Source of the DNA: Candidatus Poribacteria bacterium
Lineage (GTDB): Bacteria > Poribacteria > WGA-4E > WGA-3G
Assembly (NCBI GenBank): GCA_965205025.1
Contig: CBDBFU010000004.1
Coordinates: 1 to 64,000, forward strand
DNA length: 64,000 nucleotides
Direction of reading: 5' to 3'
The position numbers were made by a program, and so were the translations under genes. Below, in pieces: positions 12,511 to 47,439 of this stretch. A model generated the notes under the pieces. The model was not told the DNA's origin. It was given only the letters and a program-made list of their open reading frames with translations, and did no database searches. Position 1 is the stretch's first letter. Every line of letters begins with the position of its first letter.

Positions 12511-14118
12511 ATGAATACATCAAAGAACGCTATCAGACTCAAACTTGAGAATACCGCGAAGATTACGGTAAACGGCTACATCGCACCAATTGAACACACC
12601 CTATCCCACTTCCATAAAGATTGGGACACCTTAGCAAATCTACGCGTTACTGAACCAGAAAAAGAGCAACCCCTCTCAGTTTTTCAAGCCTTCCTTCCCT
12701 CAGAAGCAGTATCTGTCGGCGAGTGTTGGCAGCCGAAAAGCGAAGGCATAACAGAATTGCTTCAGCAATTACATCCCACAATAAAATTATTGGACACACA
12801 TACTCCAACCGGATATGCTCCAGGCTTATGGACATGTCTGCGTGCATATAACGATAGTTACGCGGACATTGCTTTTCGTATTCATGCAGCCTTTAGTTTT
12901 GAAGATGGCAGGTTAACACCTTCACAGTTTAAAGGAAATCTCATAATTGACAGAAGTGATGAAAGAGTCTCCTTCTTTAGCACCTATGTCCCTGAGGGTC
13001 CAGTAAATCTTGATATCGTCTGGTATGAAGATAATGATAAACAAAGTGGAATCACTGATGCTGGTCTATGTACACAAATGGAACTCTGGTCTGGTATTGT
13101 GGAACCGACCAATAATATCGAATATACTGAAAGTATAACACAGGAAGAATCAGAACGAGAGTTAATACTCCGTTTCTACGAATCAGAACAGATTAACTGG
13201 GTTTCACCAGAGAAAGCAATAGAATTGGCTGAGGAACAGGTAAAGTTAATACATGTGATCTCTATAGATGGTCCATTACATGATGAATCCTGCTGAGGGA
13301 GCGGAAAAGGATTGAGGGCAGGTGTCCTCTATTGGGATCGATTAATCGAGTATTTAAACCAGAACTTTATTAACACATGGGTATCCAACGTCATATTAGA
13401 ACGTACACCTCGCAAAAAAGCATACATGGCAAAAAGACCAAAGAGTGAATCCAATCAATTCAATAAAAACCACCCATTAGCAAAAGCAATAATGGAAGGT
13501 TGGAAGGAACATTCACCTGTGGATTGTTTAGTTATTGCACCTGAAGGCGATGTAATGGGTAAACTACCACTCAACGACTTCTTCGATGAATGTTATGAAA
13601 ATAACCTTAAAGAAGATGTCTACCTGCAGTTTCTTAAGGATTCATTAGATGCGAAATTTCCAGGTTTCGATGAGGATACTTCAGATCCGTTCTTAACGGG
13701 TTTGAATGTTATCCTAACTGAAGATAATCCTAAACAAGAAGTAATACACATCTACCGAACACCACGTTACGGATATCAAGATTACAATGTCATCACAATC
13801 GATACCACTACTTTTAAAGACGGTGGCAAGTTGACAATAGATATAAATATTGGAAGTGCAAAAGCAGGTGGTTCATTCGATCTGTATGATGGTGATACGG
13901 AATTACCAACAAAAGGATATCCAGATGGAGCAATTGCGTCTGCATGGGATATTCCTACCGGACAAAAAGGTAGAATTGAATACGAATTTGAAGAAGGTAA
14001 GCTCTTTAAACTCGGTGCTACCGGTACATGGTTCAGTGGTAAAGGAAACATTAATGCTTTTCAGGCAAAAATTTCTATAGAGCCAGCAGAAAAGAAGAAA
14101 AGAACTTATAATGAGTAA
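12511..14118 (+). CDS. Selenoprotein N-like selenoprotein, copy 1 (535 aa; Sec at UGA 13294-13296) with one C-terminal beta-rich domain
   Basis: ORFs 12511-13296 and 13312-14118 are in frame. Read-through gives DGPLHDESC-U-GSGKGLRAGVL, compare human SELENON LDDQSCUGSGRTLRETVL. Also FRIHAAF, TPSQFKG, QMEL, LNQNFINTW, YLQFLKD. Hairpin follows the UGA. Confidence 0.9.
13314..13329 (+). promoter_or_regulatory. Bacterial SECIS-like hairpin, copy 1
   Basis: GAGGGC-AGGT-GTCCTC starts 18 nt after the UGA. G at second loop position; 23 nt between UGA and loop. Confidence 0.75.
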
Positions 14119-14210
14119 AACATAAAAATGTTATATTATAGGGATTTGAAAGAATTTATTTATGTCCTATTCTCAACTTCGTATATCTATAACTTTTGAA
14201 AGGTGTAGCG

Positions 14211-14400
14211 ATGCCAGACAAGACTCAAAAATCCCTGAAATACAATGGTACTCCTAAGCAGGTTTCGCGTAAAGATTTTAATCATTATATCAAACCCCAT
14301 CTCAAGAAACGCATCAAAGGTCCTAAACCGAAACTGTCTTTCTATAAGATATTCAACTATATACTTGATAAACTTTCGGGTTGCTTTCAACGATTCTTAG
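14211..14400 (+). pseudogene. Transposase N-terminal remnant (IS5-like)
   Basis: YNGTPKQVSRKDFNHYIKPHLKKRIKGPKPKLSFYKIFNYIL resembles IS5-group transposase N-termini, then similarity is lost. Confidence 0.55.
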
Positions 14401-14510
14401 ATGTTACTCGCTATGAATTCTATATGAAAAATAAATCTCAATTATGCACTTTTTTCACCTTTAAATTGTGTCATGTATTATTGTAAACATTTTGACTATG
14501 GAGTAAACTC

Positions 14511-14861
14511 ATGAATAAAACAGATGTTGAACTTATTAACAGTATCCTATCAGGTGATAATACTGCGTTCACTACCTTGGTACAAAAATACCAAAAGAGT
14601 GTCCATACCATCGCTTGGCAGAGGGTTAAGGACTATCACATAGCAGAAGAAATTGCTCAAGATGTCTTTCTACAAGTATACGATAAGTTGTCTACATTAA
14701 AAGACCCAGATAAGTTTGAAAGATGGCTGTATGTAATTACTAAACGACGATGTACTAACTGGCTCCAGAGGGAGAAAACCAATGTAGAATCGTTAGAAGC
14801 TACGGATAAATTTACACTAGTAAAAGCTGCATATTTTCCTTTTTCTGCTCAATTTGCGTAA
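14511..14861 (+). pseudogene. Truncated ECF sigma-70 factor (region 2 only)
   Basis: DVELINSILSGDNTAFTTLVQKYQKSV...AEEIAQDVFLQVYDKLSTLKDPDKFERWLYVI. No region 4. GGAG RBS. Confidence 0.8.
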
Positions 14862-14954
14862 GTCTTGTCTAAATTTGGTGCTACAGAGGACTGGTACGGC
14901 GAGAAGGGACGTATCAATGCCTTTCAAGCACAAATTTCTGTAGAGGAGAACTGA
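14862..14954 (+). pseudogene. 3' remnant of a gene ending in the same C-terminal domain as the SelN-like genes
   Basis: Translates VLSKFGATEDWYGEKGRINAFQAQISVEEN*, compare copy 2 end FKLGATGDQSSKLGDINAFYLRISVEEN*. Same frame as the sigma fragment. Confidence 0.8.
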
Positions 14955-14955
14955 A

Positions 14956-16908
14956 ATGGAAACCTTAGAAAACAAAATCACACTTAATCTTGACAGTGAC
15001 GCAGAAGTCAACGTCAAAGGCTTCATCACCCCGATTGAATACACCATATCCAATTTCCATGTAAAGTGGGATGCATTGGCGAATCTGCGTGTTGCTGAAC
15101 CGGAAAAGCGGTATCCTGAATCCGTTTTCCAAGCCTTCATGCCGAGCGAAACTGTTTCGGTTGGCGAGCATTGGCAGATTGAAAAGGGCAGTGTGCTAAC
15201 ACTGCTCCGACAACTACACCCCAATCCGAATCTGGATATGAGCATCAATGCCGGTGATTCCCGCGGGTTATGGGCATGCCTGCGCGCGTACAACGATAAA
15301 TTCGCCGACATTGTGTTTCGAATTCACGCCGAGTTCAAGTTTGAAGATGGCAGGTTTACACCCTCACAATTTACCGGACATCTCGTGATGGACCGAACCG
15401 CAGAGAAGGTTGCTTTTTTCGAAATGTACGTCCCTGAGGGGCCAGTAAATTTTGATGTTAGCTGGAATTCTATTGTCGATGCCGGACTTTGCACGCAGAT
15501 GGAACTCCGTGTCGGAACACAGAATCCAGTCCGAGATGCCGAATTCACAGCGGATTCCATCACCCAAGAAGAAGCGGAACGCATCCTGATACAGCGTTTC
15601 TATAAATCCGAACGAATTAACTGGGTGCCGCCAGAGCAGGCGTTAGAAATAGCACAAGCACAACAGAAGCCGATTCATGTTATCTCAATAGATGGACCGT
15701 TCACCGATGAGGCCTGCTGAGGGAGCGGTAAAGATTTGAGGGCAGTTGCCCTCTCTTATGATAAAACTATTGAATTCTTGAATGAGAACTTCGTTAATAC
15801 CTGGGTGTCGAATGTCGTATTAGAGCGGACACCCGCAATGCGTGATTATGCGGCACAGAGATTTGAAGACGGCACCAGGGCACTGTTTAATAGAAAACAC
15901 CCTTTGGCAGAAGTCGTCATGAAGGGGTGGAAAGAACACTCACCAGTAGACTGTTTGATTATCTCATCAGATTCTGAATTGATAGGTAGACAACTCGTCA
16001 ACGAACTCCACAAAGACGGGCGTCGTAGAGGACTCCTATCGAATGAATATTATCTCACATTCCTTAAGGAAGCCTTGGATGGAAAACACCCCGGATTGGG
16101 GAACCTCATTCTCACTAAAGAGTCTCCTTCACAGAAAGTGTTGGACGTTTTTCGGACCCCTACAGTCGGTTATCAAGATTATACTGTTGTCTTGATTGAT
16201 ACCACCGAATTTGAAGACGGAGGCACACTCACTATTGACATTGAAGTTGGCAGAGATGGTGGTGAAGGTGCGTTCTATCTGTTTGATGCCGATAGCGAAC
16301 TTTCTACAGAAGAAGAGACCCCTAAAGACATGCTTGCTCAGAGATGGGTTGAATCCGGTGCCACAAAGCAGCTCACGCATCGTTTCAATCGCGGCCAACG
16401 TTTTAAGTTAGGAACCACCGGGGATTACGAGAGAGAGGAACCGTGTATTAACGCTTTTAGCGCAACAGCTTCCGTACAGGAAAATTCAGATGAAGGCAGT
16501 TCAGATACACCTTCACCCGGTGTGCATGTTGTACTCAATAGTCCGCAGTTAACATGGGAGATATTAGATGTCTTTCGCGCCCCCGGAAACGGTTATCAAG
16601 ATTACACTGTCGTCAATATTGATACCACCGCGTTTGAAGACGGAGGCACACTCACTATCTATGTCAAGGTTGGGAGTGCAGACGCTGCAGGTTCGTTTGA
16701 TCTCTTTGATGGCGATGCCGAACTCCCGACAGAAGGACTACCTGATGCGCTTGTCTCGTTTTGGGGACTTGAACCCGATACAGCGACAACAATCAGACAC
16801 CGTTTTGAGCGAGGCCAAGTTTTTAAACTCGGTGCCACTGGTGATCAGTCCAGTAAACTTGGGGACATAAATGCTTTCTACCTAAGGATTTCTGTGGAGG
16901 AAAATTGA
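14956..16908 (+). CDS. Selenoprotein N-like selenoprotein, copy 2 (650 aa; Sec at UGA 15718-15720) with two C-terminal beta-rich domains
   Basis: ORFs 14956-15720 and 15736-16908 are in frame. Read-through gives DGPFTDEAC-U-GSGKDLRAVAL. Also ACLRAY..FRIHAEF..TPSQFTGH, FLNENFVNTW, YLTFLKEAL. GYQDYTVV.IDTT.FEDGGTLTI occurs twice. Confidence 0.9.
15731..15757 (+). promoter_or_regulatory. Bacterial SECIS-like hairpin, copy 2
   Basis: GAGGGC-AGTT-GCCCTC (15738-15753) at the same offset as copy 1, extendable by AAGA/TCTT across a TTT bulge. Confidence 0.75.
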
Positions 16909-44524: not shown

Positions 44525-45841
44525 ATGATAAATATTTCAAATAAACTACAATGGTTAACAGTTTTTCTAACAATTTCAATCCTATTTATTTGCGGATGCG
44601 GTAGTGACGAAGATGATGATACTATAGATCAAACTGGTGAAGGGAAAATCCAAGTTCCTCAAGCGTATGTATTTGACAGTCGTTTCCAAGAGGGAGAAAG
44701 TAGTGTATCCTATTCTGGACAAGTTGTTCGAAATTTACTACTACAGGATCTGAAAGCAGTTACAGATAGTGTCGGAAAAGATAGTGGGAAAGCTGCATCT
44801 GTAGATGATATGTTACAATTATATGAATACGACGATGCTTTGAACCTAAAAACAATTACTACCACTGGATCCGTACCTGCCCTTGAAAGTCAGTACTCTT
44901 CTCTATCAACTGGTAAGAATCTCGTTGGTAAAATCTCCGATGCTCCTGTTATCGGTTATAACCGGTCTGCCGATGATTTAGTACGAGAATGGTTCAAAGG
45001 AATATCGGACAACTCACAAGATTCGGATAAACTCGGTACTGCAATGGCTTATACTACCGAAGATGGTGTTGACATGTCTCAGATGATAAACAAAGTCCTT
45101 ATTGGTGCTGTTCCCTACTATCAAGCAACTGGCGTTTACCTTGATACTCTACTTGAACGTGATAATAGTGAAGCAAGGGATGGTACAAAACCGTATACTG
45201 CAATGGAACATGCATGGGATGAAGCTTTTGGTTATTTCGGGGCAGCTCGGGATTATGCTCGATATACCGATATACAACTGGCTGGATCAGTTGATGATTT
45301 TACTTTTGATTCTAATGGTGATGGATCAATAGATTTCAATTCCGAGTACAATTTCGGTCTATCCAGAAATGCTGCTAAACGGGATAAAGGAGGTACAGGC
45401 GTTGATTTTACTACTGAAATCTTCAATGCATTCCTTGCCGGTCGGACTGCTATCACAAATCAAGGATCTGTCTCAGAAATAAGTGCACACAGACAAGCTG
45501 CTGCAAATGGCATGGAAAAAGTAATCGCCGCAACTGTTGTTCATTACATCAATGATACACTTAGTGATATGTCAAAGTTAGGGACAGACGAAGAGAATCT
45601 TGCTAATCTAAATAAACATTGGGCAGAAATGAAAGGATATACAGTTGCATTACAGTATAATCCTTTCAAGTTAATTAGTGATGGTCAACTTAGGGAGTTA
45701 CATGGTATCATGGGAACGGCTCCGAAGTACGATACACCCGGAACAGATGCCTATAAAACTCAGGTCACTAATTATCAACGAGCAAAAGATGTAATGCAGG
45801 CTGCTTACGGATTCTCAAATTCAAACATGGAGAACTGGTAG
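44525..45841 (+). CDS. DUF4856-like (imelysin-related) lipoprotein
   Basis: Lipobox CGC, SSVSYSGQVVR, EHAWDEAFGYFG, HWAEMKG. Confidence 0.78.
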   Translation: MINISNKLQWLTVFLTISILFICGCGSDEDDDTIDQTGEGKIQVPQAYVFDSRFQEGESSVSYSGQVVRNLLLQDLKAVTDSVGKDSGKAASVDDMLQLYEYDDALNLKTITTTGSVPALESQYSSLSTGKNLVGKISDAPVIGYNRSADDLVREWFKGISDNSQDSDKLGTAMAYTTEDGVDMSQMINKVLIGAVPYYQATGVYLDTLLERDNSEARDGTKPYTAMEHAWDEAFGYFGAARDYARYTDIQLAGSVDDFTFDSNGDGSIDFNSEYNFGLSRNAAKRDKGGTGVDFTTEIFNAFLAGRTAITNQGSVSEISAHRQAAANGMEKVIAATVVHYINDTLSDMSKLGTDEENLANLNKHWAEMKGYTVALQYNPFKLISDGQLRELHGIMGTAPKYDTPGTDAYKTQVTNYQRAKDVMQAAYGFSNSNMENW

Positions 45842-45885
45842 GTAATACTCTAAGTTCGGACCCATATAAGGTTGAGTAGTTAAAC

Positions 45886-45923
45886 AAAGGAAGATTATCC
45901 ACGTAATGGTTAATCTTCCTTTT
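45886..45923 (+). terminator. Intrinsic terminator-like hairpin
   Basis: AAAGGAAGATTA...TAATCTTCCTTTT. Confidence 0.55.
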
Positions 45924-45948
45924 TACATCTCTTGAAACGTCCAAAAAG

Positions 45949-47439
45949 ATGAACAAACAGGAACAAACAAACCATCTATTCACATGGGGATTTATCTTAC
46001 TCTGTTGTATTGTTTCCCGTTTGTTAAGTACTATCTATTACATTGAAGATATAGACAGTCTAAGATTTGCATTGAGTATGCTGGAATATGATGTAGAAAA
46101 GTTACAACCTCATTTTCCAGCATATCCCGTCTTCTGTTTCCTAGCAAAATTCATTTATATCTTGACTGGACGGTACTCTATAGCATTTTCAATTATAGGA
46201 GGTATATCCACTTTTCTGATAATCTTCTTTACCTTAAAGATTGTTAAGATCAAATGCACTTCTCAATTGGGAATAATCGCTATCTTGATTTTATTCATGA
46301 ACCCTTTATTGTGGTTAATGAGTAATCGTTATATGCCAGATATTTTAGGTCTTGCATGTCTATTAGGAGCATTCTATTACATCTTAAAATCTATACACAA
46401 GGATGGAAACAACTCATCATTTTATGGTTACATTGGATATTTTCTTGCAGCAATTTTGTCGGGAATAAAAATCTCATATATCCCATTATTGATACCAGTC
46501 CTATTAATCGGATTAAAAAACAATAATAGAATAAAGTTAATTATCGTAGGATGCATAGGGCTATTATTGTGGCTAATACCATTATTGTGGATGACAGGGT
46601 GGAAGACACTCTTAGGAAGTGCTCTGAACCAGACACAAGGGCACTTTACAGATTTTGGGGGTACAGTTTCAACAAATCCGGATTTATGGCTCCGTTTGAG
46701 TAAAATTATCGAGAGTATCGTTGCTGATGGGTTTGGATTATATTGGCTGGGACGTCATCTCATAACAGCTGTAAGCACTATCCTTCTCTTAGTTATAATT
46801 TTCTCAAATTGGAAATCAATAGTAGGTAGAACTGAACAGAGTCTGTTTGGACAGAATCATATATACCACCAATCACTATTGATTGGTTGCATAATTTATT
46901 CTGTCTGGTTATTTGTAGGACAGAATGTGATATATAAGAGTCGACATATAATACCATTATTACCTTTTTTCTCTATAGGAATAGCCATCGCATGTAATCA
47001 AATGTTAATAAATGCGAAGAAGCAGACTGATTCAATACGTATGGTATTGAAAAGATGGTATCAATACAGCATTGGAATTCTTGTATGCTTTCTTCTTTGT
47101 TATAGTTTCGTTACAATACATACCGTCATTCAACATACAAGACCTACCGCAATAGCACAAATACAAAGATACTTACTCGAAAAAACATCTCAATCTAACC
47201 ATGAACTCAAAATTGTATCTGTTCCACTAATTAAATATTATTTGGTGTCCCAAGGAGTGAAAGCAGAATATATACCTATAAAATCTCCAAAAGATATACA
47301 ACAACTTAATGATCTGAACAGTAAATATGTAGCAATTGGAACAAATTTACCTAATCGCAATCCAAAAAAGGAATTTACGTTTTACCATAACCCTTATGTG
47401 AACAGAATGTGGTCAGAATTACATGTATATGAATACTAA
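45949..47439 (+). CDS. Polytopic membrane protein, GT-C glycosyltransferase-like
   Basis: DIDSLRFALS, QPHFPAYPVF, NPLLW..SNRYMPD, about 10 hydrophobic segments. Confidence 0.6.
   Translation: MNKQEQTNHLFTWGFILLCCIVSRLLSTIYYIEDIDSLRFALSMLEYDVEKLQPHFPAYPVFCFLAKFIYILTGRYSIAFSIIGGISTFLIIFFTLKIVKIKCTSQLGIIAILILFMNPLLWLMSNRYMPDILGLACLLGAFYYILKSIHKDGNNSSFYGYIGYFLAAILSGIKISYIPLLIPVLLIGLKNNNRIKLIIVGCIGLLLWLIPLLWMTGWKTLLGSALNQTQGHFTDFGGTVSTNPDLWLRLSKIIESIVADGFGLYWLGRHLITAVSTILLLVIIFSNWKSIVGRTEQSLFGQNHIYHQSLLIGCIIYSVWLFVGQNVIYKSRHIIPLLPFFSIGIAIACNQMLINAKKQTDSIRMVLKRWYQYSIGILVCFLLCYSFVTIHTVIQHTRPTAIAQIQRYLLEKTSQSNHELKIVSVPLIKYYLVSQGVKAEYIPIKSPKDIQQLNDLNSKYVAIGTNLPNRNPKKEFTFYHNPYVNRMWSELHVYEY

Follow-up and report, generated by a model that had tools for sequence, protein, structure and literature searches.

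Bacterial selenocysteine insertion sequence (SECIS) elements, with those of Escherichia coli fdhF and fdnG as the prototype, are notoriously variable, which limits the annotation of selenoproteins. In eukaryotes, a hairpin close to the UGA for selenocysteine (Sec), the selenocysteine redefinition element (SRE), has been characterised in SELENON, a human muscle-disease gene. Here, we provide comparative evidence that two hairpins in a genome of Candidatus Poribacteria, a group of sponge symbionts, each located shortly after an in-frame UGA, are very probably bacterial SECIS elements of two SELENON-like selenoprotein genes, referred to as genes A and B. The analysed window is the whole 64,000-nt stretch at positions 1-64000 of contig C4, and its source genome comprises 5.66 Mb.

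The bacterial SECIS model of Zhang and Gladyshev (2005), in the part of PMC13188914 that summarises it, comprises an apical loop of 3-9 nt with at least one G in its first two positions, mostly as G[G|U], an upper stem of 4-16 bp, a distance of 16-37 nt from the UGA to the apical loop, and a minimum free energy (MFE) of at most -7.5 kcal/mol. For vertebrate SELENON, passages of PMC8704476 and PMC12839072 describe the SRE as a coding-region hairpin after the UGA whose stem, loop, and spacer matter for recoding, and its start is placed <10 nt after the UGA in the relevant section of PMC1440920. According to sections of PMC4561486 and PMC2248747, the SRE boosts read-through at any stop codon, and this effect does not depend on the SECIS. 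It was proposed by Mariotti et al. 2015, in the corresponding section of PMC4561486, that SRE and hymenopteran read-through element (HRE) hairpins, at least in SPS genes, derive from bacterial SECIS elements.

Two SELENON-like genes and the hairpins after their UGA codons

Genes A (12511..14118) and B (14956..16908), both on the forward strand like all window features named below, are open reading frames (ORFs) joined across a single in-frame TGA each, and gene B shares 54% identity with gene A. Gene A would encode a SELENON-like selenoprotein of 535 aa if its UGA (13294..13296), part of a C-U-G motif, is read through as U262. Gene B is a paralogous SELENON-like gene with a duplicated C-terminal domain, and its UGA (15718..15720; U255) lies in frame within a long ORF. 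Both UGAs are embedded in the context ...DGP.xDE[S/A]C-U-GSGK.LRA.... The two hairpins pointed out in the earlier note are present as described, i.e., GAGGGC-AGGT-GTCCTC in the DNA of gene A (13314..13329; in the RNA GAGGGC-AGGU-GUCCUC, with the stem at 13314-13319/13324-13329 and the loop AGGU at 13320-13323) and GAGGGC-AGTT-GCCCTC in gene B (15738..15753; GAGGGC-AGUU-GCCCUC, stem 15738-15743/15748-15753, loop AGUU 15744-15747). Their equal offset likewise holds, as 17 nt separate UGA and stem in both genes, so that the stem begins with the 18th nt and the loop with position +24; in gene A, this spacer (13297..13313) comprises the codons of G-S-G-K-G and the first two bases of Leu. The fifth pair indeed differs, with G-U in gene A, where the codon is Val GUC, and G-C in gene B, where it is Ala GCC; the residues encoded also differ as had been stated (AGVL versus AVAL).

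Both hairpins fit the bacterial SECIS model in all its sequence features, as far as the summary in PMC13188914 describes it, in lying within the coding region directly 3' of an in-frame Sec UGA, in their 4-nt loops and 6-bp stems (model, 3-9 nt and 4-16 bp), in loops AGGU and AGUU that carry the G[G/U] asked for, and in a distance of 23 nt between UGA and loop (model, 16-37 nt). The hairpins alone have energies of -7.7 (gene A) and -10.4 kcal/mol (gene B), which pass the limit of -7.5 kcal/mol of the same summary. There are also Cys homologs that align Cys with the UGA, namely the protein-level Cys forms P0134, P0140, P0143, and P0152, and the loci L168 and L182. The window hairpins differ from the prototype in being a bare 6 bp that lack a conserved lower stem, with SelB binding predicted here, and in their host family, which is not listed as a bacterial selenoprotein in the main texts of the literature searched, as far as these were covered.

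The genome possesses the complete gene set of a host for bacterial SECIS elements: selA (599 bits), a full-length selB (366 bits), a tRNA-Sec (selC; 78.5 bits, ARAGORN anticodon tca) that directly adjoins selB, and selD, which is located on the same contig beyond the window (C4:104148-105074, reverse strand) and has an in-frame TGA of its own (CAG-U-ASKL). TGA is an ordinary stop codon elsewhere in the genome. Since it ends 385 ORFs of at least 300 codons and since tRNA-Sec is present, we rejected a reassignment of UGA in the genetic code.

Searches of the gene A and B proteins against Pfam, NCBIfam, and PDB sequences returned no family. When residues 201-400 were compared by phmmer with 1.84 billion representative proteins, 76 matches were obtained, mostly fragments that end at the UGA or start just past it. 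Among the matches spanning the site were SELENON of two marsupials, the wombat (E = 3.2e-6) and Sarcophilus harrisii (E = 1.2e-4), as well as animal-like fragments with the sequence ...WGALDDQSC[W]GSGRTLRE.... A pairwise BLASTP comparison aligned gene A with wombat SELENON over 346 aa (E-value 1e-24; 27% identity), and the alignment stays colinear across the Sec site. By these matches, the family of the window genes is, as judged from sequence, a bacterial branch of SELENON. No description of bacterial SELENON homologs or of their SECIS was found in the main texts of the literature searched, including the parts covered of PMC13188914, PMC12013277, and PMC13326102, and the bacterial SELENON family is apparently undescribed so far.

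Occurrence, codon choice, and covariation of the hairpin

The window's genome encodes six intact copies and one broken copy of the family, each with TGC-TGA and the hairpin at equal distance, and the paralogs stand in tandem arrays. The broken paralog (C7, about 45300-46900, reverse strand), located outside the window, carries a 1-nt insertion in the loop (GAGGGC-CAGUU-GCCCUC) that shifts the frame and leaves the stem intact. Matches were obtained in 48 of 61 related genomes, with exactly one TGA in almost every match among those listed. A second subfamily was matched in 110 of the 151 genomes of the order, and a more distant family of the order consists of shorter, more divergent members, again with TGA.

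For the comparative analysis, loci were fetched in Poribacteria-like genomes and provided 264 distinct 180-nt contexts of the aligned position. The codon aligned with the UGA of gene A is TGA in 252 contexts, Gly (GGA/GGC) in nine, Ser (TCA) in one, and Cys (TGC) in one; one further context is a spurious alignment. Of the 252 Sec contexts, 250 have a hairpin that combines a stem of at least 5 bp with a G[G/U] loop. Stems in these 250 measure 5-9 bp, and the loop start is +24 in 233 of them, +25 in 11, and +19 in six. Hairpin energies reach at most -5 kcal/mol in 246 Sec contexts and at most -7 kcal/mol in 227, and the hairpin alone attains the model's -7.5 kcal/mol in 207 of the 252. Of the two Sec contexts that lack the G[G/U] loop, one belongs to a pseudogene whose frame is shifted and whose loop has an additional C, and the other is an LRAGIL variant with a 5-bp stem, which keeps a G deeper within a longer loop. 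RNAalifold on 223-240 sequences revealed neither a conserved lower stem nor pairing with the UGA, only the hairpin being kept, and no other SECIS candidate in the 78 nt after the UGA; a lower stem or UGA pairing, as suggested by the MFE structure of gene B, is thus not conserved in these alignments.

Such hairpins are rare in the same genome. Under control rules of a stem of at least 5 bp, a G[G/U] loop, a loop start at +17 to +38, and E <= -5, a hairpin followed eight of 385 ordinary TGA stops of long ORFs and was present in 18 of 1418 random coding windows. The exact motif GAGRNC-N4-GNYCUC with all six pairs formed occurs nine times in the 5.66-Mb genome. Six of these occurrences are sense-strand copies, and in each of them the TGC-TGA of a family gene stands 17 nt ahead of the motif. 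Of the other three, two are palindromic copies read as their reverse complements, and the third has no relation to the family. Both window hairpins are real and far beyond chance.

Codon choice indicates that this conservation concerns the RNA. Among the first 216 contexts, to which the codon and resampling analyses refer, codons +6 to +11 are nearly fixed, including on the rare codons AGG, GUC, and CUC: Leu+6 is YUG in 204 of 205 (genome 23%), Arg+7 is AGR in all 216 and AGG in 193 (genome AGG 8%), Ala+8 is GCA in 184 of 191, Gly+9 is GGU in 123 of 124, Val+10 is GUC in 133 of 142 (genome 17%), and Leu+11 is CUC in 204 of 212 (genome 12.5%). Conserved residues in the flanks vary freely in their codons, e.g., Gly-8 (GGA 98, GGT 70, GGC 30, GGG 18) and Leu-6, which uses all six codons, and Arg+15 is mostly CGA; the free variation in the flanks provides an internal control against mere inheritance. 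When the protein was kept fixed and synonymous codons were redrawn from the family's own flank usage in 20 replicates, hairpins with E <= -5 arose in a mean of 12.65 and a maximum of 20 of the 216 contexts, compared with 211 observed (about 6% versus 98%). As a side observation, codons next to the UGA are also biased: GGG, with a genome usage of 14%, encodes Gly+1 in 148 of 196 contexts, and TGC encodes Cys-1 in 213 of 216. TGC-UGA-GGG may be a preferred UGA context. Conserved pairing does not account for the bias.

The codon data bear directly on the notion that the inverted repeat has no function in the RNA and is a by-product of the L-R-A-G/V-V/A-L motif, together with inherited codons or gene conversion among paralogs. 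The motif residues are conserved even in animal SELENON, the tandem arrays make gene conversion plausible, and the hairpin of the Cys form L168 is matched by codon resampling in 575 of 2000 trials. Yet a fixed protein yields the hairpin far too rarely in the resampling of the family, the hairpin codons are seldom used in the genome or in the flanks of the very same genes, the conserved flank residues show free synonymous variation, and paired changes keep the pairing across subfamilies of 35-45% identity and in L167. We therefore consider a by-product of protein and ancestry to be very improbable.

The paired changes were quantified with 150 of 223 distinct 48-nt segments, taken as the first 150 in list order, and 500 shuffles. 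The pairs covary across homologs, the check that had been proposed for the hairpin, in that no shuffle reached the observed value on any of three measures: 96.7% of cells are paired (93.6% shuffled), both sides are changed in 21 cells (4.0 shuffled), and the covariation score is 0.175 (0.114 shuffled), although such shuffle-based counts overstate significance because the sequences are related paralogs and orthologs. In slid-register controls, 46-79% of cells are paired. Individual cases illustrate the pattern. AGA at Arg+7 faces C in none of 26 contexts, and the base opposite AGG is C in 178 contexts and U in 28. Thr (ACA) at +8 occurs together with Val, which gives an A-U pair; in L079, the outer G-C pair has become A-U by two synonymous changes (UUA, CUU), and in one copy the outer pair is C-G. 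Paired changes keep the pairing across the subfamilies of 35-45% protein identity and also in the separate lineage L167. Where the canonical register is broken, a hairpin forms anew at the same site, as in the ..EL-S variants (GAGRGC-AGKUGA-GCUCUC, with a 6-nt loop), the divergent CUANGK..RAGPL subfamily (GAGGGCG-GGUC-CGCUCUC), and the LRVGPL variant (GAGAGUG-GGUC-CACUCUC), where C-G is replaced by U-A; in the LRSGEL subfamily, GCCUG-AGGU-CAGGU is possible 4 nt upstream.

In 152 of the 252 Sec contexts, pair 5 is formed by G and U, which confines the structure to the RNA of the sense strand. This argues against a repeat that acts in the DNA as a palindromic protein site, a hotspot of recombination or gene conversion, or a restriction-like target. 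Two copies in the genome are perfect palindromes, as such a repeat would have it, but the G-U pair is a mismatch in DNA and in the antisense strand, and every sense copy in the genome stands at a fixed distance from an in-frame UGA, which makes a DNA-level role hardly credible.

Homologs without Sec and the case for recoding

The earlier note had set the conservation of the hairpin in Cys-encoding homologs as a test of its inference that the hairpin is the recoding signal. A profile scan for Cys forms in species genomes found no relative, a degenerate DNA pattern search for them gave 13 loci with one true relative (L174, identical with L182), and among five candidates checked as Cys-only Poribacteria genomes the three full-length matches all have TGA. 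The metagenome scan detected two loci only, L167 with Sec and L168 with Cys. L168, on a GC-rich metagenome contig, has the hairpin CGAGCG-GGUC-CGCUUG, and since resampling of its codons produced an equally stable hairpin in 575 of 2000 trials, this hairpin is no better than chance and carries no weight. L182, a Poribacteria gene fused to an extracytoplasmic function (ECF) sigma domain, has TGC and a perfect stem, GAGGAC-AUUU-GUCCUC. Because its eight orthologs at 85-88% identity all have TGA, with the loop AGUU, L182 is a recent change from Sec to Cys, in which the loop G was also lost.

Sec was replaced by Gly in a secreted subfamily (orthologs of P0003 in genus g9; L069-L074, L081, L082, L085), where TGA changed to GGA or GGC at least five separate times; in the tree, Gly forms appear at scattered positions between orthologs with Sec. 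The Gly forms differ from their nearest Sec ortholog by 18-26% at 4-fold sites. The stem is kept in all nine Gly forms; L069-71 have the loop AACU, which probably reflects one event, and one form has the loop AGUC. The single Ser form (TCA) has an unchanged hairpin. In L085, the Cys preceding the Sec position is lost, too. The repeated change from Sec to Gly suggests that redox activity was lost repeatedly while the protein was retained.

The outcome of the preset test is thus divided: all 11 non-Sec derivatives (nine Gly, one Ser, one Cys) keep the stem, which speaks against a signal specific to Sec, but all of them are evidently young by comparison with their Sec relatives, their stem is held in part by residues required in the protein, and the independent Cys lineage L168 is at chance level. 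The loop G, present in 250 of 252 Sec forms, is lost in four of the 11 (L069-71 with AACU and L182 with AUUU) by two independent events. This loss fits a relaxed Sec-specific constraint on the loop, a suggestive pattern given the small numbers.

Further evidence comes from the other selenoprotein genes of the same genome. Ten genes have an in-frame UGA at a canonical active-site Cys, with Pfam matches that span the UGA in all ten; four belong to AhpC/TSA and three carry a heavy-metal-associated (HMA) domain, and the remaining three are a thioredoxin-like, a GRDB-like, and an ArsC-like gene, the match of the last being weak and below the Pfam curated cut-off. Their hairpins have stems of 4-9 bp and loops UGGAU, GGA, AGG, GUU, AGGUA, or GUA that start at +17 to +24. 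In the HMA genes L216 and L217 (C23:110621-111487) and L214 (C15:368039-368809), GMT-U-xxC takes the place of the usual GMTCxxC, and the three hairpins are nearly identical, (N)AGUGCA-GGA-UGCACU(N), with stems starting at +17 and loops at +24. The latter position is shared with the window hairpins, and C-A-GGA-U-G of the HMA genes is close to C-AGGU-G of the family. In general, the hairpins of the ten genes resemble those of the window in their 3-5 nt loops with GG or GU, including AGGUA in the ArsC-like gene, whereas neither the stem sequences nor the host proteins are related, and spacing shows differences of up to 7 nt. The selD hairpin is GCUC-CGGGU-GAGC, with the loop CGGGU starting at +17. 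A hairpin style shared across 11 genes (selD and the ten) is what one expects if a single SelB reads them all.

Several results weigh against assigning the window hairpins to the SECIS elements, in addition to the stem that is intact in 11 of 11 non-Sec derivatives. The RNAfold check recommended earlier is favourable for the energies of the hairpins alone and unfavourable for their local surroundings, as the z-scores for the 60-90 nt that follow the UGAs lack significance (-0.39, -1.14, -0.16, -1.25); the case consequently rests on comparative evidence and not on stability alone. No Rfam family matches the hairpin: cmscan of 13200-15900 against Rfam release 15, up to E = 10, gave only a chance match to CRISPR-DR25 (E = 1.9). 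Conservation of the sequence is partly at the protein level, since L-R-x-x-[V/A]-L is conserved also in animal SELENON. The significance taken from shuffles is overstated, the sequences being kin and not independent samples. Finally, the selD hairpin is weaker (4 bp) and nearer to the UGA than the family hairpin, which implies that the SECIS 'house style' of this genome is loose.

The retained stems leave room for a functional mRNA structure other than a SelB-binding SECIS, i.e., an SRE-like element for anti-termination or pausing, or an element of mRNA stability or folding, with SelB recognising something else. Such a role would suit the 11 derivatives that keep the stem without encoding Sec and the SRE of the homologous animal gene, which boosts read-through without a SECIS (described in parts of PMC4561486 and PMC2248747); other conserved structures near the UGA are lacking in the RNAalifold analysis. 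On the other hand, the 78 nt after the UGA hold no alternative SECIS candidate in the same analysis. Moreover, the non-Sec derivatives are young and include the only intact forms that have lost the loop G; among the Sec contexts, the G[G/U] loop is lacking only in the frameshifted pseudogene and in the LRAGIL variant, which keeps a G. Loop motif, distance from the UGA, and stem length match both the bacterial SECIS model and unrelated selenoprotein genes of the same genome. We consider a structural role apart from SelB unlikely.

The interpretation of the hairpins as SECIS elements, and with it the recoding signal inferred in the earlier note, is strongly favoured because of the constraint on synonymous sites, the covariation, the fit to the bacterial SECIS model, and the likeness to the genome's other selenoprotein genes. 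A SECIS after a bacterial Sec codon is a known kind of element and expected. Briefly, as the ribosome nears the in-frame UGA, the 6-bp stem with its AGGU or AGUU loop would fold in the mRNA 17 nt downstream, and the C-terminal domain of SelB, together with Sec-tRNA(Sec) and GTP, is predicted to bind it. Sec would then be delivered to the A site in place of release factor 2. The stem is encoded by the codons of Leu-Arg-Ala...Val/Ala-Leu, residues that the protein also needs, and selection on the RNA becomes visible as forced codon choice and paired changes.

Gene surroundings and a possible relation to the animal SRE

The beta-rich C-terminal domain is present twice in gene B, and its second copy, at 16486-16902, corresponds to residues 386-525 of gene A. 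Between genes A and B, a 116-aa ORF (14511-14861) resembles by eye the N-terminal ECF-sigma part of P0200 and looks like a truncated sigma-factor gene; sigma domains are fused to, or adjoin, other family members (P0152, P0200). It is followed by a 25-codon stub (14877-14954; ...GATEDWYGEKGRINAFQAQISVEEN-stop) that matches the C-terminal end of the family's last domain, stops 1 nt before the ATG of gene B, and is probably a remnant of a further tandem copy.

The positional parallel with the SELENON SRE gains meaning because the host proteins are SELENON homologs. Both the window hairpins and the SRE are hairpins in the coding sequence shortly past the Sec UGA of a homologous gene, both lie in the stretch that encodes SCUGSG[K/R]xLRxx[V/A]L, and stem, loop, and spacer are expected to matter in both. 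They differ in the spacer, which is <10 nt for the SRE, in the section of PMC1440920 cited above, and 17 nt in the bacterial genes, where no conserved pairing exists nearer to the UGA. They differ also in their partners, as the SRE is a helper beside a kink-turn SECIS in the 3' untranslated region (3'UTR), SBP2, and EFSec, while the bacterium has SelB. A long SRE could cover the same codons as the bacterial hairpin.

The descent of SRE hairpins from bacterial SECIS elements has been proposed for SPS/SelD. SELENON resembles that case as a selenoprotein family of bacteria and animals with a UGA-adjacent hairpin in both, and would differ from it as a second, independent family. Common descent would mean that SELENON passed between bacteria and early animals, Poribacteria being symbionts of sponges, and carried the UGA-proximal hairpin along. 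Wherever SelB recognises it, this hairpin would act as a complete SECIS, and it would have been 'downgraded' to a helper, the SRE, where its task fell to a SECIS in the 3'UTR; in the opposite direction, an SRE would have been pre-adapted to become a bacterial SECIS. A shared ancestry of the bacterial hairpin and the SELENON SRE, which would make them one element, is a tentative and rather doubtful proposition.

If it were true, SELENON would be the first family in which homology between bacterial SECIS and SRE can be traced codon by codon. A bacterial SELENON homolog with a SECIS in the same coding stretch is in any case a concrete test case for such descent. The value of the finding lies in an unusually clean comparative proof, in the bacterial SELENON family that it marks, and in this opening for a test of descent from bacterial SECIS to SRE. 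For the family itself, one compact and very well supported type of putative SECIS marks hundreds of mis-split genes across a whole bacterial family.

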